Numbered from the stretch's first letter, positions 6,233 through 31,606 are shown. The stretch is DNA of 32,000 bases from Saccharolobus solfataricus (GCF_900079115.1 NZ_LT549890.1:1200001-1232000), one strand, 5' to 3'. Notes: generated by a model from the sequence alone, not told the origin. Numbers and translations are program-made.

Positions 6233-6458
6233 TAGATCTTTTTAAGCTAGTTTACAAGTTTTTTACAAGAGAACGTCTATCCTTTTGATGCTGAATACTC
6301 TAAGCATAAGTGGTTTTTTCCAAATATTTACTTATACAATACATAAAAGTTGCATAAAAACTATTTTAGTTAAACTATCCGCATCCTCTACTAGAAAACG
6401 TTCATCGGGATATAAGAAAAAAATTGTTTATATGTATTTTAAAAAAAAAGAACATACT

Positions 6459-8537
6459 TTACTCTTTAGCCGTATTTTTCTTAACTGTAGGGATAATAGA
6501 TATTAATATAATAATTAGTATGAATGCTATTACAATAGCAGGTATTCCGTACACTTGGTATAACGTATATTTTCCCACGTAATTAACTAGGTAGTTAACT
6601 ACAGTTTCCCCTGGTGTTAATTTGACGTAATTTAATGGTATTGTGATGTTTTTGACGTATGTCTGATTACTATAGTAATAGAACATTGATATCTGAAATA
6701 CAGTATTCTTTGTGACATGTATGGTAAAAGGCATTGCTATGGTTTCGTTTGGTAGTATTTGTGAGATTACGTAGAATGGTGGTGTTATTGCAGTACCGTT
6801 GGGTTTTATAAGGATGTATATATTGTTGGCGTTTTGGTTTCCGGTGTTTTGTATGTATAGTATTAGTGTGGCTGTATATGTTCCAGTTGTTGATCTAGTT
6901 ATATTGATGAATTGGTATGTTGCATTCAACCTGACTGATATAGGTAACACTGATTTAGTATAATTTAATGGTATTGTGATGTTGCTAGTATATGATTGGT
7001 TACTATAGTAATAGAACATGGTTATTTGAACCAGTGCGCTATTTGGTGTGCGTAAAGTGAATGGGATTGCTATGGTTTCGTTTGGTAGTATTTGTGAGAT
7101 TACGTAGAATGGTGGTGTTATTGCAGTACCGTTGGGTTTTATAAGGATGTATATATTGTTGGCGTTTTGGTTTCCGGTGTTTTGTATGTATAGTATTAGT
7201 GTGGCTGTATATGTTCCAGTTGTTGATCTAGTTATATTGATGAATTGGTATGTTGCATTCAACCTGACGAATGGGACTTCGTAAACTTTCTGCCAGTAAG
7301 AAAACACGCTATTGCCAGAATAAAAGGTAATGTGAACAAGGTTAGGTTTTATAGTGGCAGGATACAAGACATTTCCTTTAGGAGATAGTTTTAGTATCTT
7401 TACAGCGTCTTGTCCAAACTGAACTGTTATATTATATAGCGTTATGTTATCACGATTAGATATGTTAATGTTACCGTTATTCCACGCTACACTTATTGGA
7501 TATACTATAGGAAAATAATAACTGCCTAAAGTTACGTTCTTAAGACCTAATGGTGTGTAGAAGAAAGCATAAATCTTGAGTGAAACATTTGAATTGGCAT
7601 AGAAGGATAATATGAAATTTACAGCACTATTTGAAGCTAAATGTGGAATAGTTAACATCTTCATAGTATTATTATAGTTGGCAATTATGGTGAGGTTGCT
7701 TATTGGAAGGGTGTCTTTATTTACTATTGAGACATTAAAGTTATTATAACCCGGATAAACGACTCCATTAGGAGTTCGAACATTTGCATATAGTGTTGAT
7801 ATTGAAGTATTTACGTTAGTTTCTAAAACGAGTTGCCTAACATAGTAGAGGTTATAGGGTGTTAAAAACCGTATAGTTAATGGAATATTTAAATGATAAA
7901 TCGGAATATCTTCAAATGGGACAAATAGCTCCACTGATATGTCCTTACTCCCGTTAACGTAAGACAAACTAACGTTTTTCATAAAATATGGGGATAAGAT
8001 AGAGCCATTGTAGAGTGGAGATGGTGTGTTAATTCGAAAGATAACTTCTTGGAAACCTTGTATTAAGCTTGAATTTAATAGTTTAATACTAAAGTTATAA
8101 ATACCATAGTAAGGCAAAGTAAATGAGGTATTATAAGATACATTACCCCCATTTTCAGTGATTAATGACAACATTACTGGGAAATCTAACTGATTAGGAA
8201 GACTCGAGCTAACTATAGTAATGTTAAATTGTATGTTATATTGTTGCACTTGAGAGGATAAGGGTAAAATGTCTTCTACATAATGTCCTTCGGTAGCGTT
8301 TAGAATTCCTTGAGGTAAAAGTATCTTTGCAATTAGGGCATAAGCGTTTATCTTAGTAGAATTTAAAAACGTAATCAAGTTTACATTTATCGTTGTAAGA
8401 TTATCCAAGGTGGGGATTGTCTTCCAGTTAGCTGTAATGAAGTATGAAAAAGGTGGTGTTGTAGATGAGGAATTTGAGACTCCAGATAACATTAGTGGGA
8501 AGAGCACTAGAAGTATTAAGACAATTGATTTATACAT
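6459..8537 (-). CDS. Secreted, heavily N-glycosylation-sequon-rich surface protein with a C-terminal TM anchor and an internal 111-aa tandem duplication
   Basis: 692 aa. N-terminal signal-like MYKSIVLILLVLFPLMLSG. C-terminal IPAIVIAFILIIILISIIP followed by KKNTAKE. I counted about 34 N-x-S/T sequons by eye. ATG 8537 is preceded by AGGTGA (Shine-Dalgarno-like). Confidence 0.8.
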   Translation of the reverse strand: MYKSIVLILLVLFPLMLSGVSNSSSTTPPFSYFITANWKTIPTLDNLTTINVNLITFLNSTKINAYALIAKILLPQGILNATEGHYVEDILPLSSQVQQYNIQFNITIVSSSLPNQLDFPVMLSLITENGGNVSYNTSFTLPYYGIYNFSIKLLNSSLIQGFQEVIFRINTPSPLYNGSILSPYFMKNVSLSYVNGSKDISVELFVPFEDIPIYHLNIPLTIRFLTPYNLYYVRQLVLETNVNTSISTLYANVRTPNGVVYPGYNNFNVSIVNKDTLPISNLTIIANYNNTMKMLTIPHLASNSAVNFILSFYANSNVSLKIYAFFYTPLGLKNVTLGSYYFPIVYPISVAWNNGNINISNRDNITLYNITVQFGQDAVKILKLSPKGNVLYPATIKPNLVHITFYSGNSVFSYWQKVYEVPFVRLNATYQFINITRSTTGTYTATLILYIQNTGNQNANNIYILIKPNGTAITPPFYVISQILPNETIAIPFTLRTPNSALVQITMFYYYSNQSYTSNITIPLNYTKSVLPISVRLNATYQFINITRSTTGTYTATLILYIQNTGNQNANNIYILIKPNGTAITPPFYVISQILPNETIAMPFTIHVTKNTVFQISMFYYYSNQTYVKNITIPLNYVKLTPGETVVNYLVNYVGKYTLYQVYGIPAIVIAFILIIILISIIPTVKKNTAKE
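6603..7268 (-). repeat. Two tandem 333-bp (111-codon) units inside the surface-protein gene, with a 203-bp perfectly identical core
   Basis: 6733-6935 is identical to 7066-7268 (offset exactly 333). The remaining 130 bp of each unit is clearly diverged (PFTLRTPNSALVQITMFYYYSNQSYTSNITIPLNY versus PFTIHVTKNTVFQISMFYYYSNQTYVKNITIPLNY). Confidence 0.95.
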
Positions 8538-8547
8538 CTCATATCAC

Positions 8548-9003
8548 CTACTCCTCAAAATCCTTCAATATCCATCCTTGATATCCATGAATTTCTAGTT
8601 CTTTACAAGCTGAGACAGATTTCGCTTCACCTATAGTAATGGAAACATTAGGGATAGTCTTATTTTCACACAGATTCACTACTCCATTGAGATCGAGCTG
8701 CGAAATATCATTAATTAGAAGGATGATTTTCACATCCTTTCTTCTTAGTTCCTTTATCTTTTTAATATTCTCTATATGAAAATTAAGGTATGTTAGAGTT
8801 GATTCTTCGTAAATAAATATCAATCTTATTTCTCTCTCTAGATCCAAGTAAAACGGAATTTTAATTCCGTTAATTTCCACATTTTTCCTTGCACTAATCA
8901 CTATCTGATCTAATTTTTTAACCATTTCCATTAAATAATCATTAATTAAATCATCTTCTATTAACTCATTTTTTGAAACTAAGATTTTATCCATTTTTCC
9001 CAC
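8548..9003 (-). CDS. Hypothetical soluble protein, middle gene of the glycosyltransferase operon. The likely start is ATG 8994.
   Basis: About 148-151 aa with no hydrophobic segment. The upstream gene's stop TAG (9006-9004) is immediately followed by GTG. ATG 8994 is preceded by GGTGG at a 6-nt spacing. No family recognised. Confidence 0.6.
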   Translation of the reverse strand: MGKMDKILVSKNELIEDDLINDYLMEMVKKLDQIVISARKNVEINGIKIPFYLDLEREIRLIFIYEESTLTYLNFHIENIKKIKELRRKDVKIILLINDISQLDLNGVVNLCENKTIPNVSITIGEAKSVSACKELEIHGYQGWILKDFEE

Positions 9004-10272
<1,269 letters not shown>

Positions 10273-12901: not shown

Positions 12902-14334
12902 CAGTGGTGTTTCACCAAATTATTTCATTTGAAAGATATAATATTAGTCCTTTCAGAAAGAGATTGATATAGAGAAAAACAATAAAATTATTATGAAACA
13001 TAACATGTTAAGATAATTTGCAAAAAATATAGCGTACAATTCTAATAAAAAAGGAGAATTTTGAATTTTTCTCACGTGGTGAAAAAGACGTGCATAGTCT
13101 CCTCTGAACACCGAGAAAGTTAGAGAAGCTTGACGAATGAATCGAAGTACAAAACCTTCTTACACGTGGACTTGAAGTTAAAGAGAAGATGATTCACTAG
13201 ATTCCACGCAGAATCCAGAACCGTATAATAGAGGAACAAGAAGATCTTGTTACTCAACTTCCTAACATACCTTATCCTTGCCTTCCTAACCTTGAAACCC
13301 TCCTCAACCTGCCACCTCAACCTATAGAGTTCAGCCAGTTCATAGGGATCTCCCTCGAAGTTCGTCACGAAGATGAAGTGCCTCGGCTTCCCCTTAACGT
13401 AAACCACATCGTAATAATAAAGCCCTTCAAATTCCAAGACCCTATACGCAACGTAAACCTTGTCCTTAACCTCATATCTCTTCTCAACTAATGGAACGTT
13501 AGATAGTTCCTTGGATCCCTTCAAGTTTGACTTTCCTCTCACAATGGTCTTCACGGGCATTTCCTTGATGACCCCTAGGTTCAAGAATCCGGCGTCAGCT
13601 ACAACGTAATCTATTTCCATGTATTGGCTTACTTCCCTCACGCTCCTAAGTAGGAACTGTGATGGACTGTCGCTTCTCAAATCTGCTATCTCCACTAGGA
13701 GGGGTAACCTTAAGGGATATACGAGGTCCAAGGATCTCATCTTTACTCCTTTTCTCTTCCAGTTGTAGAGTAGAAAGCCCTCTGCTTTTTCTTGTTCCTT
13801 TTCTCCCACGGTTAATCCGGTCTCATCTACACTACGTTGATCTCTCCCTTTACTTCTCTGTAGATTGGGTAGAACTTGAAGGTTCTCTGACCTTTGCTAA
13901 TTACTTTCTCGCCTTGTCTTACTACCTTCAAGTAGTATTTTCCTCTGTTTCCGGTTAGCAAGGATGGTGCTGCTTTCACTATTTCCGGGTCTAGATCTTG
14001 GGAGATAAGGTTAATATTGATTGTTGCTAAATTTATAGCGAGGGACTTCAGCTCCGTTATGGATACTTGTATGGTTTGCATAACGGAGTTATGGAGTCCC
14101 TCGCTTTAACCTTTTCTTGTTCATCTCGTCCTTCCACCTACTTTCCTCTATTGATAATACTAGACAAATGGTATTACTCTTTATATATAAACTCGTTTTC
14201 TGTTAGTTTCTTCAACAAATATGAAATTTTTTGCTTCTTGTATTGAAATAAGTCGATTTTTCTAACTCCGCTCTGATATTTTTCTCTTCCATAGAAATTG
14301 TATCATTTTGAGTAAAATTGGTGAAACACCACTG
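12902..14334 (-). mobile_element. Complete-looking 1,433-bp IS (ISC1439-like by size) with a 17-bp perfect terminal inverted repeat and a 9-bp target-site duplication
   Basis: The left end cagtggtgtttcaccaa is the reverse complement of the right end ttggtgaaacaccactg. The direct repeat acacaagac sits at 12893-12901 and 14335-14343. Confidence 0.85.
13120..14081 (-). pseudogene. DDE transposase of the ISC1439-like element, split into two ORFs (13827-14081 and 13120-13809)
   Basis: The C-terminal ORF carries YVVADAGFLN and LYRLRWQVEEGFKVRK. The N-terminal 84-aa ORF ends 18 nt upstream. This is either a frameshift/stop lesion or a natural two-ORF arrangement. Confidence 0.65.
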
Positions 14335-20303: not shown

Positions 20304-21254
20304 TTACTCGCTAGCATCAAAGGGCTTATTATAATACAGCACAGCCCAAGTAATAACAGCAAGCTTCCTGGCACAAGCAGTAATCAACTTCTTACCCTTC
20401 AAATTCCCCTTGTGCTCCTCATAAAACCGCTTAATAATAGGATTAACCTTGATAGCAGTTAAAGCTGCAAGATAGAAAGCCCTCCTCAAAACAGCATCAC
20501 CCCTCCTAGATATGCCTCTCGATACAACACTCTTCCCACTGGATTCAACAAGAGGATCGAGACCACAGTAAGCGACAAACCTCTTCTTGTCACCAAAACG
20601 CTTAACATCACCAACCCTTGCTAAAATTATACAACCCAACGTTCTTCCAATACCCGGAATCGTGAAGATCAAACTATCCTTAGGAACAAGATCCTCAAGC
20701 TCTTCCTCAATCTCCCTCTTCCTAACCTCAAGCCTCTCCAACTCGTCCAAGAGGAACCTAACCTCAGATAATACTATATTATCCTCCCCCCTCAATACCT
20801 CATTCAAGTTCTTCTTGGACAAACTGTCCTTATAGCCTAGAAGTATTAAATCCCTCCTTAGCCTAGTCTTAACCCTAACAATGCTCCTTGTGATAAAATC
20901 CCATTGACTTGTTAACTCCTTAGCCTCACTCGTTGTAAACTCACTGCCCATACTTATAACTAGTTCAGCGAGCTTTTTAGCGTCATTCTTATCACTCTTC
21001 TTACCCCTAATGTCCTTGAACTTCTTGAGTACGAGGGGATTAATAATCCTCACGTCGTACTCCTTACCCAAGTACTTAGCCAAGTTGATGTGGTAAACTC
21101 CAGTACTTTCTATAGCCACTTTACAACCCTTTGGCAAGACTTGCTTTACTCCTTCAAAACCTTGCTTATTATTTTGAAATTCATAGTATTTACCTTGGAA
21201 GTACACTACTAATTTATCTTTTGAAACATCTATTCCGGCGACTGGGGCCTCCAT
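20304..21254 (-). CDS. IS110-family (DEDD/RuvC-like) transposase, intact
   Basis: 316 aa. N-terminal VAGIDVSKDKLVV...AIESTGVYH. C-terminal FTIPGIGRTLGCIILARVGD...FVAYCGLDPLVESSGK. Confidence 0.9.
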   Translation of the reverse strand: MEAPVAGIDVSKDKLVVYFQGKYYEFQNNKQGFEGVKQVLPKGCKVAIESTGVYHINLAKYLGKEYDVRIINPLVLKKFKDIRGKKSDKNDAKKLAELVISMGSEFTTSEAKELTSQWDFITRSIVRVKTRLRRDLILLGYKDSLSKKNLNEVLRGEDNIVLSEVRFLLDELERLEVRKREIEEELEDLVPKDSLIFTIPGIGRTLGCIILARVGDVKRFGDKKRFVAYCGLDPLVESSGKSVVSRGISRRGDAVLRRAFYLAALTAIKVNPIIKRFYEEHKGNLKGKKLITACARKLAVITWAVLYYNKPFDASE

Positions 21255-21429: not shown

Positions 21430-22455
21430 TTGGAAAAGGCAGTTAACGAGGTCATACTATCCATGACTGGAACGAGGAAGGATGTTGCCAAGAGGCTCGT
21501 CCTGGGGGCGGTTGTGGGAAGAAATGCTACCGAGATAGCTCAAGAGGCCGAGATGGACTACGAGACCGTACTGAATAACTTGGACAAGGCAGCTCAAGCC
21601 AAACTAATCGAGGTCGTGAAGAAGTTAGTCGGGGATCATCCTGTCCTTCTCATAATAGACGACACCCACGACCACAAGCTCTACGCTAGGGCCATGCCGG
21701 TCTCCAGAAACGGGGCACAGATCTTCTACTGTAGGGCGCACAAGAGGTTCGAGCCCGCGATCCAACTCCTTGTGATTGGCGTCAAGGATCTGGTGAACAA
21801 CCAGATCTACGTGATCCACATAATTGCCTACATACCCCGAAAGGTGGAGGAGGAGCTCAAGCGTAGGGGAGAGGAGGTGAAGTTCAAGACCAAGATAGAT
21901 GCCCTCTTGGAGTTTCTCTCCTCCCTCTCAGGTTTGAATGTGAAATCCAAGGTCTTCGACTCGTGGTACGTGAACTCGAGGACTCTCCAAGGGAATACTG
22001 TGGGGGAACTCAAGGCCAACGCGCGGGTCGTCGAGGGTGGCAGATCCGTGCCCGTTGGCGAGTTCCCCCAAGGGGAGTACCTGGTAGAGTACTTGGGTAC
22101 TCCCATAAAGTTACTTGTTATAGATGACTATAAGGGTTACGGGAGGAGGTATTTCTTCTCCACCGACCTTAACGACACGGCTGAAGATATCATAACAACT
22201 TGGGAGAACCGTTGGGACATCGAGGTCTTGATCAGGGAGCTCAAGGCCTTGGGACTCGAGGGTGGGTCCTTCTTGACCTGGGTTAGGAACTCAGGCTTCG
22301 TGGCCTTGAAGGCTCTCTCCCTCCTCGTTGTCCAATACTTCAAGTACTCCACGGGTCTGGTGCTCGGGGCCAAAAGGTTGGCCAGATTGATAAAAAGCAT
22401 TTACCGTGAGGCGGGTGGAATCAAAAAACTGTTCAAGAGGAGGAGAAAACCGTAA
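21430..22455 (+). CDS. IS4/IS701-like DDE transposase
   Basis: 341 aa (TTG start). LLIIDDTHDHK, KVFDSWYV and TWENRWDIEVLIRELK. Visibly more G+C-rich than the host genes. Confidence 0.75.
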   Translation: MEKAVNEVILSMTGTRKDVAKRLVLGAVVGRNATEIAQEAEMDYETVLNNLDKAAQAKLIEVVKKLVGDHPVLLIIDDTHDHKLYARAMPVSRNGAQIFYCRAHKRFEPAIQLLVIGVKDLVNNQIYVIHIIAYIPRKVEEELKRRGEEVKFKTKIDALLEFLSSLSGLNVKSKVFDSWYVNSRTLQGNTVGELKANARVVEGGRSVPVGEFPQGEYLVEYLGTPIKLLVIDDYKGYGRRYFFSTDLNDTAEDIITTWENRWDIEVLIRELKALGLEGGSFLTWVRNSGFVALKALSLLVVQYFKYSTGLVLGAKRLARLIKSIYREAGGIKKLFKRRRKP

Positions 22456-22599: not shown

Positions 22600-23958
22600 C
22601 AGTATGGGAATCTCATTTTTCTGATATAAATGATAATATATGTAAGATTGAACCGCACCAGTTTTATTCAAATATAACTGCATATATTTTATGAAAATGA
22701 CAGTTAATAAGTCAGTTTTCAATAGCAGAATATAAATATATGGAATTAATTTCACGTAGCTGGAAGGAGGTGCATAGGGTTAGCTGGAGTCTAGGGGAAT
22801 GGCGTCTTCACTTCACGGAACGCGCGTCCTTGTTCCACTCTTACCTCCCGATCGAGGAGATTCGAGAGGGAGACCGAGAACTCCCACAACTTTACCTTCC
22901 TCCAAGAGCGGATCAAGAACCAGACATTCAAGAGAAGATAGGAAAGCAGAACGAGAACCAGTTCCTTCCTCACGTCACAAGTCCTAGTCCTGATCCTGAA
23001 CTCCTCAAGAGAGCGAAAAGCATTCTCAATCCCCCACCTCTCCCTATACATCTCGGCAAGGAGTATGGCATCATAAAGATCCATCTCCTTCCTCACGAGG
23101 AAGGCAATAATCTTGTCGTCTTCCTTCCTCAGAATAATGAGATAAGCTCCACTCCCATGTCTCACGCAGAGAAATCCAGTATATCTAACTCCGCCAAAAC
23201 TCACATCCACATCTTGCAACATCCCCTTGTACTTCTTGTACATCTGGGCCTTGGCAGATATGACGAAGTCCAAGCCCAACTCCAAGAGGTATCTAATCAC
23301 TTCGTTCACCGCGAACTCCCTGTCCGCGAAGACCATGACGAGCCTCAGCTTGTCCTCCTCCAACTCCTTCACGATTACCTCCATCACCGCCTTGAAACCT
23401 TCAGCTACGTTCTTCACGGTCACTGGGATCACGTCCAAGAAGCTCCTCTTCCTCCCCAGGAGGAAGATCGCAGCTTGAACCAGTCCCCACGATGTCCCCT
23501 TAGTTGGCTTTATCCTACTCAAGAAACTCTTGTCAGCGTGGTATTGAGGTATGGCATGGAAGTCCACCGCTACCCTCCTGTCCCTGACTCCCCTTAACGT
23601 CATCCTCCCCATCTTCCTCAACGCATCCCTCACGTCCTCAACTTGAACCGCGTTCAACTTTCTCAACGCTCTTCTCCCATCTTTCCCCAATCTGCTCAAG
23701 TAGCTCCCACTCGCCTTAAGCAAGGCACTGAGGAGTTCCTCAGGGAAAAGTATTTTAGTGAGGACCGAGTAAATTATCTTGAGGGCGGACCTGGCGAAGT
23801 CCCGGTTGAACTTCGCCGGTTTAGTTGTATTCTCATGTTTCATATATTCAGGTTCGCCCTCGTATATACAAACTTTTCTCCAGAAATTCTCATCCTCTCA
23901 ACTTTTTCTGTATTTCATTCATCTCGTTTTTTACGCAAAAAATGAGATTCCCATACTG
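22600..23958 (-). mobile_element. ISC1359 (exactly 1,359 bp) with a 21-bp perfect terminal inverted repeat and a 4-bp target duplication
   Basis: cagtatgggaatctcattttt (22600-22620) is the reverse complement of aaaaatgagattcccatactg (23938-23958). actt is duplicated at 22596-22599 and 23959-23962. Confidence 0.9.
22791..23843 (-). CDS. ISC1359 DDE transposase
   Basis: 350 aa with VMVFADREFA and MYRERWGIENAFRSLEEF motifs. Confidence 0.85.
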   Translation of the reverse strand: MKHENTTKPAKFNRDFARSALKIIYSVLTKILFPEELLSALLKASGSYLSRLGKDGRRALRKLNAVQVEDVRDALRKMGRMTLRGVRDRRVAVDFHAIPQYHADKSFLSRIKPTKGTSWGLVQAAIFLLGRKRSFLDVIPVTVKNVAEGFKAVMEVIVKELEEDKLRLVMVFADREFAVNEVIRYLLELGLDFVISAKAQMYKKYKGMLQDVDVSFGGVRYTGFLCVRHGSGAYLIILRKEDDKIIAFLVRKEMDLYDAILLAEMYRERWGIENAFRSLEEFRIRTRTCDVRKELVLVLLSYLLLNVWFLIRSWRKVKLWEFSVSLSNLLDREVRVEQGRAFREVKTPFP

Positions 23959-25060: not shown

Positions 25061-25765
25061 TTAATAATCTGAAGACTTGTAGAGTAGATCTTGTTGGTAG
25101 AACTCCCTAAATATTTTAGACATAATCTTCTTTTCGGCTTTCCTTAAATACTCCTCCAACGTGGGTTTTGATATTCCCATGATCTTTCCTAATTCCTCTA
25201 GGTTTATTCTTCTAGGATATTCATAATACCCTAGTCTTATGGCTTTAAGTACTGCATTCCTTTCTTGCTCAGAAAGATCGAAGAATGTGGGTACGAAGTC
25301 ATTAAAGTTTACAAGTTTAGCATTAAAGTAATGGATCTTCCCTATCGATTCCAAATCCCTCTTCAGTGTTGTAACGTCGCTTGAAGGCATAATTAGTAAT
25401 AATCTTTCATTACCTTCTTTTATTAAATCTTTTATATAGAGCGTCATATAATTTTCTATGATACTCATGATCATGTTCTCATACCTTTCTTTAAACAATA
25501 TTCTATAAATCCCCCTCCTACTGTCCAACTCTAAGATTTGTATAATCTCGTAAATGCTCTTCTCTTTCTTGAACGATTTTAAAAAATCCTTAAATACTCT
25601 TCTGTTATATGTTTTAACTTCGTCCATTCCTAAAATGTAGTCTTTTCCCTTACTCGGTTTTGCAAAAATCGTCTTTACTTGTACAGGAAAACTTGACGTG
25701 AGTTTACTCCAACAATCCTCGTGATCTATTTCAAAAGTCACTAGTGACAAGTTAAATAGTGACAC
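25061..25765 (-). CDS. HTH_10 (bacterio-opsin-activator-type HTH) transcriptional regulator
   Basis: 234 aa. C-terminal LSEQERNAVLKAIRLGYYEYPRRINLEELGKIMGISKPTLEEYLRKAEKKI matches the archaeal HTH_10 domain pattern. Confidence 0.75.
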   Translation of the reverse strand: MSLFNLSLVTFEIDHEDCWSKLTSSFPVQVKTIFAKPSKGKDYILGMDEVKTYNRRVFKDFLKSFKKEKSIYEIIQILELDSRRGIYRILFKERYENMIMSIIENYMTLYIKDLIKEGNERLLLIMPSSDVTTLKRDLESIGKIHYFNAKLVNFNDFVPTFFDLSEQERNAVLKAIRLGYYEYPRRINLEELGKIMGISKPTLEEYLRKAEKKIMSKIFREFYQQDLLYKSSDY

Positions 25766-27179: not shown

Positions 27180-27917
27180 ATGAAGTGCCAGATACAATAC
27201 GTTGAGTTACCGAATACTTTCCCTAAATCTGATGTAGATGTTTATAGGGTGTTGGAAGAGGATGGTAAATATTACATTAGACTTGAGCTTAATGGCAAAC
27301 CAATGTATTTTACCTTTAGTACCAGCGAAATAGTTTTGCACTCGAAGGAACTATACGAACTGGTCTCAAGGGAGGAGATTGACGATTGTTCCCCATTGGG
27401 AATTTTAGACGAAATCTTCTATGTAATATTATATCAATTGGGTACTAAGAGAACTCAACTCTTCTTAGAATTCGATAACCTTTTCGATCTCATAACGTCT
27501 GGAAAGGTAAAAGATTCAAAACGCATAATATTGTTAAGGAAGATGATATTAACGAATTATTCAGATTCAACAGTAATATACTACGTTAGTAGAAGGTTGA
27601 GCAAATTCCTCACAGCTGAGAGTGTAGAGGACGTTAAGTTCAATTATGAAAGAGCTGAATTGCTAGTTACTAGATCTGGTGATCTGTACAACATCTATCT
27701 CACAGAAGTCCAAAACGAGTTAAATGAGATAATCAAAAAGCTTACCTCGATATCGTTTATATTTATGCCCATAACTGCAGTTGCCAGCATATACGCGGTT
27801 GACTTCACAAATGTATATAGTACACTTATAAACTGGCAGAGCTTAATCTTCTTATCTCCCGTTTTAATATTAACAATCCTTCTGGTAATTTACCTAAGGA
27901 AAATAAGGTGGTTATAA
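27180..27917 (+). CDS. Short CorA-superfamily membrane protein with the GMN motif replaced (AVD)
   Basis: 245 aa. The C-terminus NEIIKKLTSISFIFMPITAVASIYAVDF...TM2...YLRKIRWL parallels CorA ...LT.....iF.P.T.iaGiYGMNF...RRK.WL. Confidence 0.7.
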   Translation: MKCQIQYVELPNTFPKSDVDVYRVLEEDGKYYIRLELNGKPMYFTFSTSEIVLHSKELYELVSREEIDDCSPLGILDEIFYVILYQLGTKRTQLFLEFDNLFDLITSGKVKDSKRIILLRKMILTNYSDSTVIYYVSRRLSKFLTAESVEDVKFNYERAELLVTRSGDLYNIYLTEVQNELNEIIKKLTSISFIFMPITAVASIYAVDFTNVYSTLINWQSLIFLSPVLILTILLVIYLRKIRWL

Positions 27918-28124
27918 AATCCTCTGGTAAAGTAATCGTTACATACTTACAGCTGATAACCTTTGATGGAGATATTGAACTTTTGCAAATTTATCCTTAA
28001 AAAAAGATGTAAAATTTATAATGTGCCATAAAAACTATTCCCTCTTACTTAAATATTTACGTAAAATATAATTCATTTAAGAGTAAAGTGTTTATGTAGA
28101 TACCCTTTTAAAAGCTTAAAATGT

Positions 28125-29474
28125 TTGTATTACATATCTCTAAATGTGAAAAGAAGAAAGCTCAATAAGGATAATAATTACAATGAATTTCTGACGGATC
28201 CAATATATTCTAGATTAATAGAAAATGTTGAAAAACTTAAGGATAAAGTATTTCATTTGAGCAAGATTGTGAACTTACAAGCCTATATGGAGGGTTTCAC
28301 TTTCTACACTTCGTCAAATTACAGAAGCACACCAATTGATGTTATACCTAGAATTATTACATCTGAACTCTTCTTCAAAATTTCAAATTATTTAGTAGCT
28401 AGAAGTTATGTGCTTAACAAGTTCATAAGGGAAGTATACCAAGAGGGTTCAAACCCAATTCCCGACTGGATAGTGAAAACGACTCCATACTTTAGGCCAG
28501 AAATGATGGGATTCTCACCACCAAAGGATATATACATTCACGTTTACGGTGCCGATATAGTTAGGGTTAACGGTGTGCCATTTATTTTAGAGGACAACCT
28601 GAGAATTCCATCTGGAATATCATACTCGTATAAGGCCTTTGAATATGTTGATAGGTTTCTGCCAGAGTTAAAAGAAGGTTATGATAATAGGGTGCTTCAA
28701 ATTAACGGGTTGGACTACCTTTATGACATTCTACGTTACGTGAGCGGTAACAAAGATCCCATCATAGTTATCTTAACTGATGGTAATTATAATTCAGCAT
28801 ATTTCGAACACAAGTTCATTTCCGAAAAATTAGGAATAATATTGGCTGAGCCAAACGATATTTACGTAAAGGATAAGGAGGTAGTAGTGAGGACCGTAGA
28901 TGAGGGCGAAGTCCATGTAGACGTAATTTACAGAAGAATTGAAGATTTGGACTATTTAACCCCGGGATTGATGAAAGCCTATTTGAGGGGTTGGGTAACA
29001 TTAGCTAACGCGCCGGGAACTGGGGTAGCTGATGATAAGGCAACGTTTGTATGGATACCATATTTGGCTGAAAAGTATGGAATTAAACTAGAAAACGTTA
29101 TACAACCATATACCATTTGTCTTTACGAAAAGGAGAATCTAGAGAAAGTTATTACCCAGCCTACGAGATATGTTATAAAGAAAAGGGAGGGTTACGGGGG
29201 TATTGGTTTGGCAATAGTTAAGGACGATAACATAAATGTTTTAAAGGAGATATATAAGGAGTATGAGAACTTTATAGCGCAAGAAGTTCTGGACTTTGAC
29301 ACAGTTATTTCTGTGGTTAACGATTCCTTTTACGAGACCTATGCTGATATGAGAATCTTCACTTACTACGATAAGGTTGCCAGTGCAGTTTTAAGTAGAG
29401 TGGGAATAATGGGAAGTAGGATAACAAATAACTCGTCTGGAGGGATGGTGAAGCCTCTATGGATTATAAAGTAG
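28125..29474 (+). CDS. Circularly permuted type-2 ATP-grasp protein (COG2308-like). The start is uncertain: TTG 28125 or GTG 28146.
   Basis: 449 aa. FILEDNLRIPSGISYS, NSAYFEHKFISEKLG, VDVIYRRIEDLDYL and LANAPGTGVADDKATFVWIP match the family's conserved blocks. Confidence 0.85.
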   Translation: MYYISLNVKRRKLNKDNNYNEFLTDPIYSRLIENVEKLKDKVFHLSKIVNLQAYMEGFTFYTSSNYRSTPIDVIPRIITSELFFKISNYLVARSYVLNKFIREVYQEGSNPIPDWIVKTTPYFRPEMMGFSPPKDIYIHVYGADIVRVNGVPFILEDNLRIPSGISYSYKAFEYVDRFLPELKEGYDNRVLQINGLDYLYDILRYVSGNKDPIIVILTDGNYNSAYFEHKFISEKLGIILAEPNDIYVKDKEVVVRTVDEGEVHVDVIYRRIEDLDYLTPGLMKAYLRGWVTLANAPGTGVADDKATFVWIPYLAEKYGIKLENVIQPYTICLYEKENLEKVITQPTRYVIKKREGYGGIGLAIVKDDNINVLKEIYKEYENFIAQEVLDFDTVISVVNDSFYETYADMRIFTYYDKVASAVLSRVGIMGSRITNNSSGGMVKPLWIIK

Positions 29475-30259
29475 AGTATATTAGCATTTACGAATACGAG
29501 GCTGATGTGATATCAAACGAGAATACGCTGAAGATTGTACCATATAACGGGGATAATCAAGTGCTAATATCACACGAGGTTGGAACTATACCTAATGGTT
29601 ACAAAACGTCTTATGTAGATATATTTGGAAACATTGTGTATAAGATAAAGGTTCAAGAATTACATAGAAGGTTGGAAATTTATTCCAAAAGTGTAGTGAC
29701 ACTGGATAAAAAAGTAATAAAGACAGATTATGAGTTCCCGTACAATTACGGCTTCAATGAGTTCCTTTTACCAACAAGATTAGTTGATCCAGAACAATTC
29801 CAGAAAATAGCTAAGGAGCTAACAAAGAGTTTAAAGACACTTGGAGAAGTAATAGAAACAATAGTTAATTTCGTGAGAAAGAAGATTATATATAAGCCCG
29901 GAATAACCAACATCAATACTACGGCATTTGAAGCGTATAGTTTGGGTTATGGAGTTTGTCAAGATTATACTCACATCACGTTAGGATTACTTAGAGCTCT
30001 AGGTATTCCAGCTAGATATGTAATGGGAGTAGTTAATGATAATCCAAGAGCAACTCACGCTTGGGTTGAAGTGTTAACTCCAGATGGTACGTACATAGAT
30101 GTTGATCCTACTAGAGGTAGGTTTTACAATTTAGATTATATAAAGTTCGCAGTTGGTAGGGACTTCAATGATGTAAGTCCAGTGATAGGGTTTTTCGTTA
30201 GTTCTGGAAGGGGATGGCTTAAGGAAGTAAGAATAAAGGTGGAGAAAAGTGCTTCCTAA
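29459..30259 (+). CDS. Transglutaminase-like cysteine peptidase/transamidase family protein (Bact_transglu_N plus Transglut_core architecture)
   Basis: 266 aa. GVCQDYTHITLGLLRALGIPARYV (Cys), THAWVEV (His) and IDVDPT (Asp). Overlaps the upstream gene by 16 nt. GGTGAAG lies 6 nt upstream of the ATG. Confidence 0.85.
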   Translation: MDYKVEYISIYEYEADVISNENTLKIVPYNGDNQVLISHEVGTIPNGYKTSYVDIFGNIVYKIKVQELHRRLEIYSKSVVTLDKKVIKTDYEFPYNYGFNEFLLPTRLVDPEQFQKIAKELTKSLKTLGEVIETIVNFVRKKIIYKPGITNINTTAFEAYSLGYGVCQDYTHITLGLLRALGIPARYVMGVVNDNPRATHAWVEVLTPDGTYIDVDPTRGRFYNLDYIKFAVGRDFNDVSPVIGFFVSSGRGWLKEVRIKVEKSAS

Positions 30260-30650
30260 AAGTATTGCGTATAAGATTTACTGGGCTGGAAGGTATTTGG
30301 AAAGAATAGAGAACATATGTAGGATGTCGTTACTAGCCATTAATAACGGGTTAAATATTAACACTGTAGCTAAACAACTTGGATTTGATAACGAGTATGA
30401 ATTGATAAATTATGTTAAAACTTCTTTCCAGTACTTAAGGGAGAACGTTAGAAGTTTTGCGGATGAGAAGGTAATTATTCAAGTGAATACACTTGAGTTT
30501 CTGATAGACTCTGACAAATCCGATTTACAAAGTTACTTTACGCAACTACTTAATGGAGTATATAACGTTGGAAATAGCTTTGAGAAGTTCTTTGTAGAGG
30601 TTAGGAGCGAGATGAGGATTAGACCACAGCAGGAAAATCAGCCAGAATAA
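30249..30650 (+). CDS. Truncated alpha-E domain protein (N-terminal part only, 133 aa)
   Basis: N-terminus LPKSIAYKIYWAGRYLERIENICRM matches the alpha-E consensus (LsRvA..lyWmGRYlERaEn.aR). GTG start, 11-nt overlap with the upstream gene, and GGTGGAG upstream. Confidence 0.6.
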   Translation: MLPKSIAYKIYWAGRYLERIENICRMSLLAINNGLNINTVAKQLGFDNEYELINYVKTSFQYLRENVRSFADEKVIIQVNTLEFLIDSDKSDLQSYFTQLLNGVYNVGNSFEKFFVEVRSEMRIRPQQENQPE

Positions 30651-30802
30651 CGTCGGTATGTGGATTTCTTTTATCTTAAGATGAACTGGAGAATACTGAG
30701 ATAATATTAAAATAATAGTAAATATTAACTTTAATAATTACAATCTAAAATTACCAATTGTATCAAATCTGGAATATAAAAATCTTATGAGGTTAGGAAG
30801 TT

Positions 30803-31606
30803 TCACTTCCCTTTAAAATTAGGTCTTCTTTTCTCGAAGAAAGCTCTAGCGCCTTCCTTAGCATCCTCTGAAGCCAGAGCTTGATTCTGCATTTCTCTCT
30901 CCAGAGCAAAAGCATTATACAACGGCAAATCCATTCCTTCATTAACTGCTAATTTTGCAAATCCCACTGCTAATGATGGACCTCTAGATATTTGCCTAGC
31001 AAACTCTAATGACTCTTCAAATAGTTTTTCTGGCTCTACTAACTTGTCTAGGATACCTAAATCATAAGCCTCTTTAGGAGAAAGTGTCTTGCCGGTTATC
31101 ATTAGATATATAGCCTTCGATCTTCCAACTAATCTAGCTAAAAACTGAGTTCCTCCCTCACCTGGGATTAAAGCTAAATTGGCTACTTCTGGCATTCCAA
31201 ATTTAATATTCTCATCATTGGCACCGAACCTCAAATCACAAGCAAGTGCCAGTTCTAAGCCCCCACCCATACAATGGCCATTTATGCTGGCTATTATCAA
31301 TTTCTTTGTTGACATCATTCTTAACATGACCTCTTTGCTAAACTGACTTGAGAGCCCTATGTATTCTGGTGATTTATCCTTTATTTCATTTATATCAAAT
31401 CCTGCAGAGAAAAATCTGGGAATTGCGCTAGTTATAATTAACGCTTTTACATTTTCATCAAAACGTGACTCCACAATAATGTTATCCAATTCTCTTAACA
31501 TTTCCAGATTATGTGCATTAGCTGGTGGTCTATTTAATCTTATTATCCCCACTCCATCTTCGACTTCTATTTTGAAATATTTTGGAGTCAATTCAGTTAA
31601 ACCCAT
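30803..31606 (-). CDS. Enoyl-CoA hydratase/isomerase (crotonase) family protein
   Basis: 267 aa. FFSAGFDI, GHCMGGGLELALACDLR and PEVANLALIPGEGGTQFLARLVG motifs. Confidence 0.9.
   Translation of the reverse strand: MGLTELTPKYFKIEVEDGVGIIRLNRPPANAHNLEMLRELDNIIVESRFDENVKALIITSAIPRFFSAGFDINEIKDKSPEYIGLSSQFSKEVMLRMMSTKKLIIASINGHCMGGGLELALACDLRFGANDENIKFGMPEVANLALIPGEGGTQFLARLVGRSKAIYLMITGKTLSPKEAYDLGILDKLVEPEKLFEESLEFARQISRGPSLAVGFAKLAVNEGMDLPLYNAFALEREMQNQALASEDAKEGARAFFEKRRPNFKGK

Follow-up and report, generated by a model that had tools for sequence, protein, structure and literature searches.

A three-gene operon for a predicted ATP-grasp ligase, a transglutaminase-like enzyme, and a single-repeat Alpha-E protein in Saccharolobus solfataricus

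The three-gene locus

I analyzed a 32,000-nucleotide stretch of the Saccharolobus solfataricus genome (GCF_900079115.1, NZ_LT549890.1:1200001-1232000), hereafter called the window, in which positions are counted from the first letter. Three open reading frames (ORFs) on the plus strand, encoding a predicted ATP-grasp ligase, a transglutaminase-like enzyme, and a small Alpha-E protein, occupy positions 28125 to 30650. An earlier note on this DNA, made from the sequence alone, had proposed that they form a coupled operon for an uncharacterised peptide ligation or modification system. The features of this cassette are listed below (+, plus strand; nt, nucleotides; aa, amino acids).

28105-28112, +, TATA-box-like element CTTTTAAA, candidate cassette promoter (motif match, positional)
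28125-29474, +, ORF1, predicted circularly permuted type-2 ATP-grasp ligase, 449 aa (TTG 28125) or 442 aa (GTG 28146)
29447-29451, +, GGTGA Shine-Dalgarno-type motif for ORF2, inside the 3′ end of ORF1, 7 nt before ATG 29459
29459-30259, +, ORF2, transglutaminase-like Cys-His-Asp enzyme with a Bact_transglu_N domain, 266 aa, ATG start
29957-29959, 30056-30058, and 30104-30106, +, ORF2 catalytic codons for Cys167, His200, and Asp216 (homolog alignment)
30238-30242, +, GGTGG Shine-Dalgarno-type motif for ORF3, inside the 3′ end of ORF2, 6 nt before GTG 30249
30249-30650, +, ORF3, mini (single-repeat) Alpha-E protein, 133 aa, GTG start
30279-30311, +, ER motif YWAGRYLERIE encoded in ORF3
30609-30647, +, conserved low-confidence C-terminal tail of ORF3, residues 121-133 (...EMRIRPQQENQPE; alignment and model)
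30665-30677, +, T-rich tract TTTCTTTTATCTT, candidate archaeal terminator, 15 nt past the ORF3 stop (function inferred)

The three ORFs overlap by 16 nt and then by 11 nt; the coordinates in the note were reproduced exactly, and the Shine-Dalgarno-type motifs which it had reported before both internal starts were located. These two motifs are the sole GGTGR matches on the plus strand of the cassette, and thus their placement at both internal starts is unlikely to be due to chance (about 90 matches exist on both strands of the whole 32-kb window). The overlapping junctions are kept at six other orthologous loci; five pairs of overlaps measure 13/8, 16/11, 16/14, 13/11, and 16/11 nt. The overlaps and the motifs together support the translational coupling of the three genes that had been suggested.

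A single YTTTTAAA match lies near the cassette, namely the TATA-like box at 28105-28112, and none lies inside 28125-30650. The whole window has 18 such matches against 13.5 expected, which is no enrichment, and thus the evidence for a promoter is weak and positional. The box lies 13 nt upstream of TTG 28125 and about 34 nt upstream of GTG 28146. Gene callers differ on the start of the ORF1 ortholog, giving 442 aa in another Saccharolobus (L016) and 449 aa in Sulfolobus sp. E5-1-F (L017). Since the box is too close to TTG 28125, and since the L016 ortholog is called at 442 aa, the start codon of ORF1 is probably GTG 28146. This start would mean a near-leaderless mRNA. On the other side, a convergent enoyl-CoA hydratase gene ends at 30803 and is separated from ORF3 by a 152-nt spacer, in which the transcription unit must therefore end. 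The trio is, as predicted from these signals and junctions, a self-contained and translationally coupled three-gene operon that is conserved as a unit.

The ATP-grasp and transglutaminase-like enzymes

A Pfam search of the three proteins, which the note had proposed, gave matches above the cut-off for CP_ATPgrasp_2, Bact_transglu_N, Transglut_core, and Alpha-E. The CP_ATPgrasp_2 model (PF14403) matches ORF1 over profile positions 1-373 of 374 (2.2e-87, 293.9 bits, cut-off 32), and CP_ATPgrasp_1 (PF04174) gives 199.5 bits. Secondary matches to glutathione-synthetase-type ATP-grasp models are weak. With this full-length match, and with all the conserved blocks that the note had quoted present in the translation, the assignment of ORF1 to the circularly permuted type-2 ATP-grasp enzymes stands. 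In an alignment of 11 archaeal and bacterial ATP-grasp sequences, 64 columns are invariant, including K345/R347, D401/R403, N428, G432-G433, and K436 of ORF1; they are taken here collectively, as conserved positions. A homolog search found at least 7,700 ATP-grasp sequences at E<=1e-40, in which a Sulfolobales clade is followed by a score gap before all others.

ORF2 contains both Bact_transglu_N (PF08379; 4.9e-14, 53.2 bits, cut-off 27) and Transglut_core (PF01841; 2.1e-21, 76.6 bits, cut-off 23). None of the residues C167, H200, and D216 varies among 10 homologs from archaea and bacteria, as expected from the Cys-His-Asp context that had been noticed in the translation. Two bacterial structures from structural genomics are direct sequence homologs with aligned catalytic motifs. 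PDB 3n6x, whose deposition title is "putative glutathionylspermidine synthase", aligns end to end with ORF1 (4.4e-62), and PDB 3isr, titled "transglutaminase-like enzyme, putative cysteine protease", aligns with ORF2 (6e-16) at the Cys, His, and Asp residues. Judging from these alignments, both enzymes keep their catalytic residues. The approximate ratios of nonsynonymous to synonymous substitution rates (dN/dS) are 0.046 and 0.066 for ORF1 (two close orthologs) and 0.057 for ORF2.

In Sulfolobus sp. E5-1-F (CP045687, L017 3212-3829), the transglutaminase-like gene is frameshifted right before the catalytic His (...NDNPRLLTHGLKY*, 205 aa), and the ATP-grasp and mini Alpha-E genes beside it are intact. 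The frameshift could reflect a pseudogene of the strain or a sequencing error.

The recognition of these families is not new. ORF2 and ORF3 are identical to the S. solfataricus proteins AAK41545/WP_010923302 and AAK41546/WP_010923303, named "transglutaminase family protein" and "alpha-E domain-containing protein" by NCBI, and "circularly permuted type 2 ATP-grasp protein" is the name given to the orthologs of ORF1. Both the system and the family assignments were thus known and correctly annotated beforehand.

ORF3 is an intact single-repeat Alpha-E gene

The Alpha-E model (PF04168) matches residues 6-36 of ORF3 at profile positions 5-35 of 294 (1.1e-5, 25.7 bits, cut-off 20.8), and some orthologs score at or under the cut-off (20.6 bits for P0007). 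The full Alpha-E architecture takes about 300 aa, and ORF3, with 133 aa, covers one repeat of it. Proteins of this type, 129-139 aa in length, were found in at least six Sulfolobales lineages, down to 40-51% identity. The hosts are Saccharolobus spp., Sulfolobus sp. E5-1-F, S. tengchongensis, Sulfurisphaera javensis, Sulfuracidifex metallicus, Acidianus hospitalis, and one metagenomic lineage. The ER motif (W-x-G-R-Y-x-E-R) reads YWAGRYLERIE without variation in this Sulfolobales family, and it aligns to both copies of the motif in the bacterial Alpha-E proteins. The dN/dS of ORF3 is approximately 0.034 and 0.075 (two close orthologs), similar to those of ORF1 and ORF2. All three genes are thus intact and under purifying selection.

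The AlphaFold2 model of ORF3 is a compact helical bundle, with a mean predicted local distance difference test score (pLDDT) of 91.3 and a predicted template modelling score (pTM) of 0.82; the helices span residues 6-32, 37-43, 49-67, 73-86, and 93-129. A 161-aa archaeal form (L015) aligns with ORF3 over nearly the whole length (E=2e-7). The note had named out-of-frame homology past 30650 as the sign of a frameshifted remnant, and this was looked for in two ways. A tblastn search of the whole window with six bacterial and two archaeal Alpha-E queries found no Alpha-E sequence besides ORF3, and a three-frame translation of 30601-30810 showed the 152-nt spacer to be stop-ridden in all frames, with no Alpha-E continuation. 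Thus, the half-size form described in the note is real, whereas its word "truncated" does not fit a complete, conserved, and selected single-repeat unit. A Foldseek search of PDB with the two mini-Alpha-E models (ORF3 and the longer form described below) gave nothing at E<=0.001, the best matches being generic four-helix bundles (0.18 and 0.24), and a PDB sequence search found no Alpha-E structure.

What, then, is the relation of ORF3 to the canonical protein? In the bacterial Alpha-E proteins from six loci (the L003-L008 set), a G-x-[YF]-x-E-R motif occurs twice, near residues 14 and 167; the forms in the two halves are G-R-Y-x-E-R and G-x-[YF]-x-E-R. By hhalign, in which the repeat boundaries are approximate, the N-terminal half aligns with the C-terminal half at 97.3% probability (E=2.3e-11, 90 columns). 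Since the halves align and both keep the ER motif, the canonical Alpha-E of about 300 aa is an internal tandem duplication. Of the two canonical repeats, the N-terminal one is the better match for the short family (93.9% probability, E=1.6e-7), and the C-terminal repeat motif aligns more weakly (E=1.9e-4). In the comparison with the full canonical protein, the short family's columns 10-69 correspond to 9-99, with some 31 residues gapped. On this evidence, ORF3 is one complete Alpha-E repeat unit, of which bacteria carry a tandem pair.

An exhaustive profile search with the short family against 1.84 billion representatives gave 14 matches at E<=1e-3. The genuine ones are all 102-166 aa in length, and the canonical 300-aa Alpha-E was not recovered at this threshold. 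Since the single 294-position Pfam model spans two homologous repeats, archaeal proteins with one repeat just reach the cut-off or miss it, and their annotation is inconsistent. That the archaeal Alpha-E is a complete single-repeat unit of the bacterial tandem duplication is new as far as I could establish.

Two archaeal clades with different gene orders

An Alpha-E gene accompanied by genes for a circularly permuted ATP-grasp and a transglutaminase-like protein with Bact_transglu_N was found in the window and at 11 other archaeal loci. The main groups are as follows.

Sulfolobales (window, L002, L009, L011, L013, L016): Alpha-E of 129-139 aa; order ATP-grasp, transglutaminase, Alpha-E, with overlapping junctions
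Nitrosopumilus (L014, L019): Alpha-E of 164-169 aa; order transglutaminase, Alpha-E, ATP-grasp
Desulfurococcales metagenome-assembled genome and related contigs (L015, L018, L020): Alpha-E of 158-161 aa; divergent transglutaminase gene, Alpha-E directly upstream of ATP-grasp

Thus, the mini Alpha-E, as recognized by sequence, is not peculiar to Sulfolobales, and a second clade exists in Nitrosopumilus and Desulfurococcales-type archaea (hereafter the 160-aa clade). A search with this longer mini form found 33 proteins, all with archaeal source names; those that are complete measure 154-173 aa. Like ORF1-3, the five loci of the 160-aa clade in the list combine the three families with a single-repeat Alpha-E, and they lack an adjacent gene for the proteasome-related protein Anbu. 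The modelled protein is a bundle like that of ORF3 with one extra short helix (pLDDT 89.7), and it also has a conserved Gln-rich C-terminal tail. In contrast to ORF3, the Alpha-E proteins of this clade (154-173 aa) have, besides the extra helix, a Pro-rich linker and an HQQQ C-terminus. Unlike in the window, their genes lie immediately upstream of the ATP-grasp gene without overlap, and the transglutaminase gene is upstream on the same strand or divergent. RefSeq names them "alpha-E domain-containing protein" only.

The order ATP-grasp, transglutaminase, Alpha-E, which the note had described as departing from the bacterial layout, was read both in the window and at the Sulfolobales loci. The flanking genes of the trio differ in every archaeal lineage examined. 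No Anbu gene was found beside the cassette in the window or at any archaeal locus examined. That the mini Alpha-E forms two clades in archaea, with gene orders that differ, is, as far as I could establish, a new observation.

Two single-locus observations were made in the 160-aa clade. In L015, a 128-aa ORF without a family match (6395-6781) overlaps the 3′ end of the ATP-grasp gene; it was considered as a second half of Alpha-E and rejected, having neither the ER motif nor any resemblance. In L020, a Prok-JAB (deubiquitinase-like) gene (2376-2783) lies two genes from the transglutaminase gene.

A conserved Gln/Glu-rich tail

The model of ORF3 loses confidence in the C-terminal tail, where pLDDT drops to 58 and then 49, and yet the tail is conserved. 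In eight sequences with at least 51% identity, Q127, E129, N130, P132, and E133 are invariant. The Sulfolobales tails follow R-x-Q-[QE]-E-N-x-P-E with near-invariant or invariant positions, or KQEE... in the Acidianus type, and the terminal residue itself varies (E, F, K, Q, or V). In the 160-aa clade, a Pro-rich linker is followed by ...Q..HQQQ as the end of the protein in 18 of the 21 aligned sequences, and, at an overall identity of 37-57%, P153, Q163, H166, Q167, and Q168 never vary. When windows along the protein were ranked by conservation, the tail came among the highest in each family: in the 160-aa clade 8 of 159 windows were as conserved, and for Sulfolobales the count was 17 of 126. 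The codons of the tail vary synonymously with fixed residues, and the DNA downstream is unrelated between loci. These patterns indicate that the constraint acts at the protein level in both mini clades.

In contrast, six bacterial full-length Alpha-E proteins have neither the Pro linker nor an extended tail, ending in ...SEQYLT or ...FFQEEFVEA. To the extent that I could establish it, the conserved Gln/Glu-rich tail of the archaeal mini Alpha-E has not been described before.

Relation to the bacterial Anbu operon

The system was defined by comparative genomics (Iyer, Abhiman, Burroughs & Aravind 2009, as cited in PMC5666114 and PMC6376114). The bacterial Anbu operon, represented here by Bauldia (L008), Pseudomonadota (L005/L006), and Halalkalibacter (L003), shares the three families and the tight clustering with the window. 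Its ATP-grasp is 36-41% identical to ORF1 over the full length, and the Cys-His-Asp triad, the Bact_transglu_N domain, and the ER motif of Alpha-E are also shared. The differences are clear. The bacterial order is ATP-grasp, Alpha-E, transglutaminase, Anbu (PMC6376114), whereas in the window the transglutaminase gene precedes that of Alpha-E. Anbu is present in the bacterial operon (in L005 and L006 it was recognized by eye from an MTYCVGI...ADTRTN N-terminus rather than by a hidden Markov model) and absent beside the archaeal trios. Alpha-E is a tandem-repeat protein of about 315 aa in bacteria and a single repeat of 129-139 aa with a Gln/Glu tail in Sulfolobales. By family content and clustering, the cassette is the Sulfolobales version of the Anbu operon system without Anbu.

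The bacterial operon has been described as having an unknown function, with hypotheses "not experimentally confirmed" (PMC6376114; PMC5666114), and its proteins other than Anbu as "sparsely distributed among archaea" (PMC5666114). A Yersinia homolog of the ATP-grasp protein releases phosphate from ATP (PMC6376114).

Proposed mechanism and alternatives

Taken as a whole, the cassette is best read as an operon that encodes a pair of enzymes writing and erasing a modification, together with a mini Alpha-E adaptor; I give this reading a probability of about 0.6. The ATP-grasp enzyme would use ATP to activate a carboxylate as an acyl-phosphate, which would then react with an amine to give an amide or isopeptide bond. 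Most likely this carboxylate would be of the Glu type or C-terminal, on a peptide or protein. The transglutaminase-like enzyme would hydrolyze or transfer the same kind of bond, namely a Gln/gamma-glutamyl amide or a peptide bond. A single modification would thereby be written by one enzyme and erased, or matured, by the other, with the mini Alpha-E as their non-catalytic helical-bundle partner. This partner probably homodimerizes, copying the pseudo-dimer with two ER motifs of the bacterial Alpha-E, and it probably serves as an adaptor or regulator by docking its flexible Gln/Glu-rich tail into one enzyme of the pair.

Several points weigh against this reading. Homodimerization and tail docking are both inferred as probable, and no Alpha-E protein is known to bind an ATP-grasp enzyme. 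In pull-downs, the proteins of the bacterial operon formed no stable complexes with Anbu (PMC6376114). A literature search on the archaeal genes gave no substrate, product, interaction, or expression data, in agreement with the statement in the note that substrate and product had not been determined experimentally. The substrate may be a small molecule instead of a peptide or protein. The promoter and the terminator were called from motifs. The dS of ORF3 is 1.5-2.0, near saturation, and thus its dN/dS values are approximate. The hhalign profiles are shallow (an effective number of sequences of about 2-4), and the short family is significant against the canonical Alpha-E over the first 60 or so columns only.

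The best-surviving alternative, itself rather unlikely, is that the system handles a small nitrogen metabolite, such as a gamma-glutamyl amide, a polyamine, or a short peptide for storage or scavenging. The compound would be made by the ligase and broken down by the transglutaminase-like protein, an amidase in this view, to free ammonia or an amine; Alpha-E would serve as the regulatory subunit. The weak matches of ORF1 to glutathione-synthetase-type models and the deposition title of 3n6x fit this idea, and so does the presence of the trio in the ammonia oxidizer Nitrosopumilus. In bacteria, the Burkholderia operon belongs to the NtrC/sigma-54 nitrogen-limitation regulon (PMC5491218), Anbu of P. 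putida is up-regulated under nitrogen limitation (PMC5666114), and domains of the system co-vary with urea-metabolism domains in marine metagenomes (PMC3597751). However, a peptide-like Alpha-E tail and a partner with a peptidase fold fit a peptide or protein substrate at least equally well. The nitrogen-regulation data are bacterial only, and no metabolite has been linked to the system. Rv2411c and Rv2567 of M. tuberculosis are presumably members of the system's families. They were included in a 2026 preprint as candidates for the synthesis of gamma-aminobutyric acid (GABA)-trehalose and were negative; this was the sole reaction tried, and the result is uninformative. Rv2569c is a broad protease in vitro, insensitive to Cys-protease inhibitors, which does not define its native role.

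Could the mini Alpha-E be the substrate or carrier, like a Pup-type tag or a LysW-type carrier protein, instead of an adaptor? I regard this as improbable. The tail would be deamidated (Gln to Glu) or thio-esterified by the transglutaminase-like enzyme, and the ATP-grasp enzyme would then ligate the activated carboxylate. Both mini clades do end in Gln/Glu-rich tails conserved at the protein level (R-x-Q-[QE]-E-N-x-P-E, KQEE..., and PP..P...Q..HQQQ-COOH), which are modelled less confidently than the bundle and, in the 160-aa clade, follow a Pro-rich linker. In general, transglutaminase-fold enzymes act on Gln side chains and ATP-grasp enzymes on carboxylates. Precedents are the GGQ terminus of Pup with Dop and PafA, the C-terminal Glu of LysW with the ATP-grasp enzyme LysX, and RimK with ribosomal protein S6. 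The Pup and LysW/LysX systems offer the functional analogy of a carboxylate-amine ligase, an amidase or deamidase, and a small protein with a reactive, flexible C-terminal Gln/Glu. There is no kinship in sequence or fold, however: Pup is disordered and LysW is a zinc-ribbon protein, whereas the mini Alpha-E is a helical bundle. PafA and Dop are glutamine-synthetase-like, not circularly permuted ATP-grasp or transglutaminase-fold enzymes. Besides, the terminal residue is not fixed in the Sulfolobales forms, a helical bundle of 130-170 aa is large for a tag, and a tag role would not generalize to the bacterial system because the six bacterial Alpha-E proteins have no such tail.

It is very improbable that the cassette works with a CorA-like membrane protein, for instance in an ion-coupled or membrane-associated modification. 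A CorA-like ORF of 245 aa (27180-27917, plus strand) does end 207 nt upstream of ORF1 on the same strand, as the note had stated, and a gene of the same length is kept upstream of the trio in L016. However, the gap in L016 is about 1 kb, and the TATA-like box stands between the CorA-like gene and ORF1 in the window. No such gene lies upstream in Sulfolobus sp. E5-1-F, S. tengchongensis, Sulfurisphaera javensis, Acidianus hospitalis, or the L013 metagenome locus, or at any of the five loci of the 160-aa clade. Among the 11 other archaeal loci, the linkage is thus at the level of the genus Saccharolobus; the CorA-like gene was rejected as a fourth component, and it is not part of this variant of the system, among whose departures from the bacterial layout the note had counted it. 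The channel function of the protein is itself questionable. CorA matches the C-terminal membrane part only (2.7e-12, 47 bits, profile positions 198-292 of 292), TIGR00383 scores 43.6 against a cut-off of 200.75, and the N-terminal 150 residues have no family match. CorA channels carry a GMN signature (YGMNF) in the loop after the first membrane helix; at this position the ORF reads ...ASIYAVDFTN... (YAVDF), and thus the protein may not be a Mg2+ channel.

Finally, it is scarcely credible that ORF3 is a functionless, decaying fragment of a full-length Alpha-E gene left by a frameshift or deletion, since the short match (31 residues of a 294-position model) and a length under half the canonical one are outweighed by the length and sequence kept in at least six lineages, the dN/dS of 0.03-0.08, the confident compact fold, the end-to-end homology with the 161-aa forms, and a stop-ridden spacer that meets a convergent gene in a window free of further Alpha-E sequence, and this reading was rejected as refuted.

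The reading of a write/erase enzyme pair with a mini Alpha-E adaptor concerns a system defined in 2009 that is widespread, as the homolog count indicates. The archaeal form consists of three small proteins of a thermophile without Anbu, which makes it a simpler structural and biochemical target. Thus, the streamlined, tractable variant proposed in the note holds for the half-size Alpha-E and the distinct gene order, if not for the CorA-like gene, and the cassette is a somewhat more tractable entry point. It also shows Alpha-E to be built from a unit of about 130-160 aa, tandem in bacteria. The Gln/Glu-rich tail gives a testable handle, since either the ligase or the thiol enzyme might bind tail peptides or act on them. 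Should the tail be the reactive group, the cassette would represent a new protein-modification pathway, a minimal protein-tagging or carrier system in Thermoproteota, and the role of the ligase system of the bacterial Anbu operon would be revealed too. If it is not, the Alpha-E domain and its evolution would still be more cleanly defined.

Other features of the window

The window was scanned for Rfam and tRNA (transfer RNA) features and none was found; a PADLOC scan for defense systems gave no meaningful match, and no copies of the cassette were found among IMG/VR viral contigs and PLSDB plasmids. An HTH_10 (bacterio-opsin-activator-type) DNA-binding protein is encoded on the opposite strand about 2.4 kb upstream of the cassette (25061-25765, minus strand), and no link of this gene to the cassette was seen in other genomes.

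The cassette lies among unrelated metabolic and transport genes in a region rich in insertion sequences (IS), which is typical for S. solfataricus. There are five transposase ORFs (52-951, 13120-13809, 20304-21254, 21430-22455, and 22791-23843), of which three are DDE_Tnp_1, one belongs to the IS110 family, and one is ISC1217. At 21-24 kb, G+C rises to 0.47-0.48 in patches that match the positions of IS elements. Elsewhere, on the minus strand, a 692-aa ORF with a sub-threshold HHH_7 match only (6459-8537) and a 151-aa ORF without matches (8548-9003) lie downstream of a family-2 glycosyltransferase gene (9004-10272). These three co-directional genes may form an uncharacterised operon.

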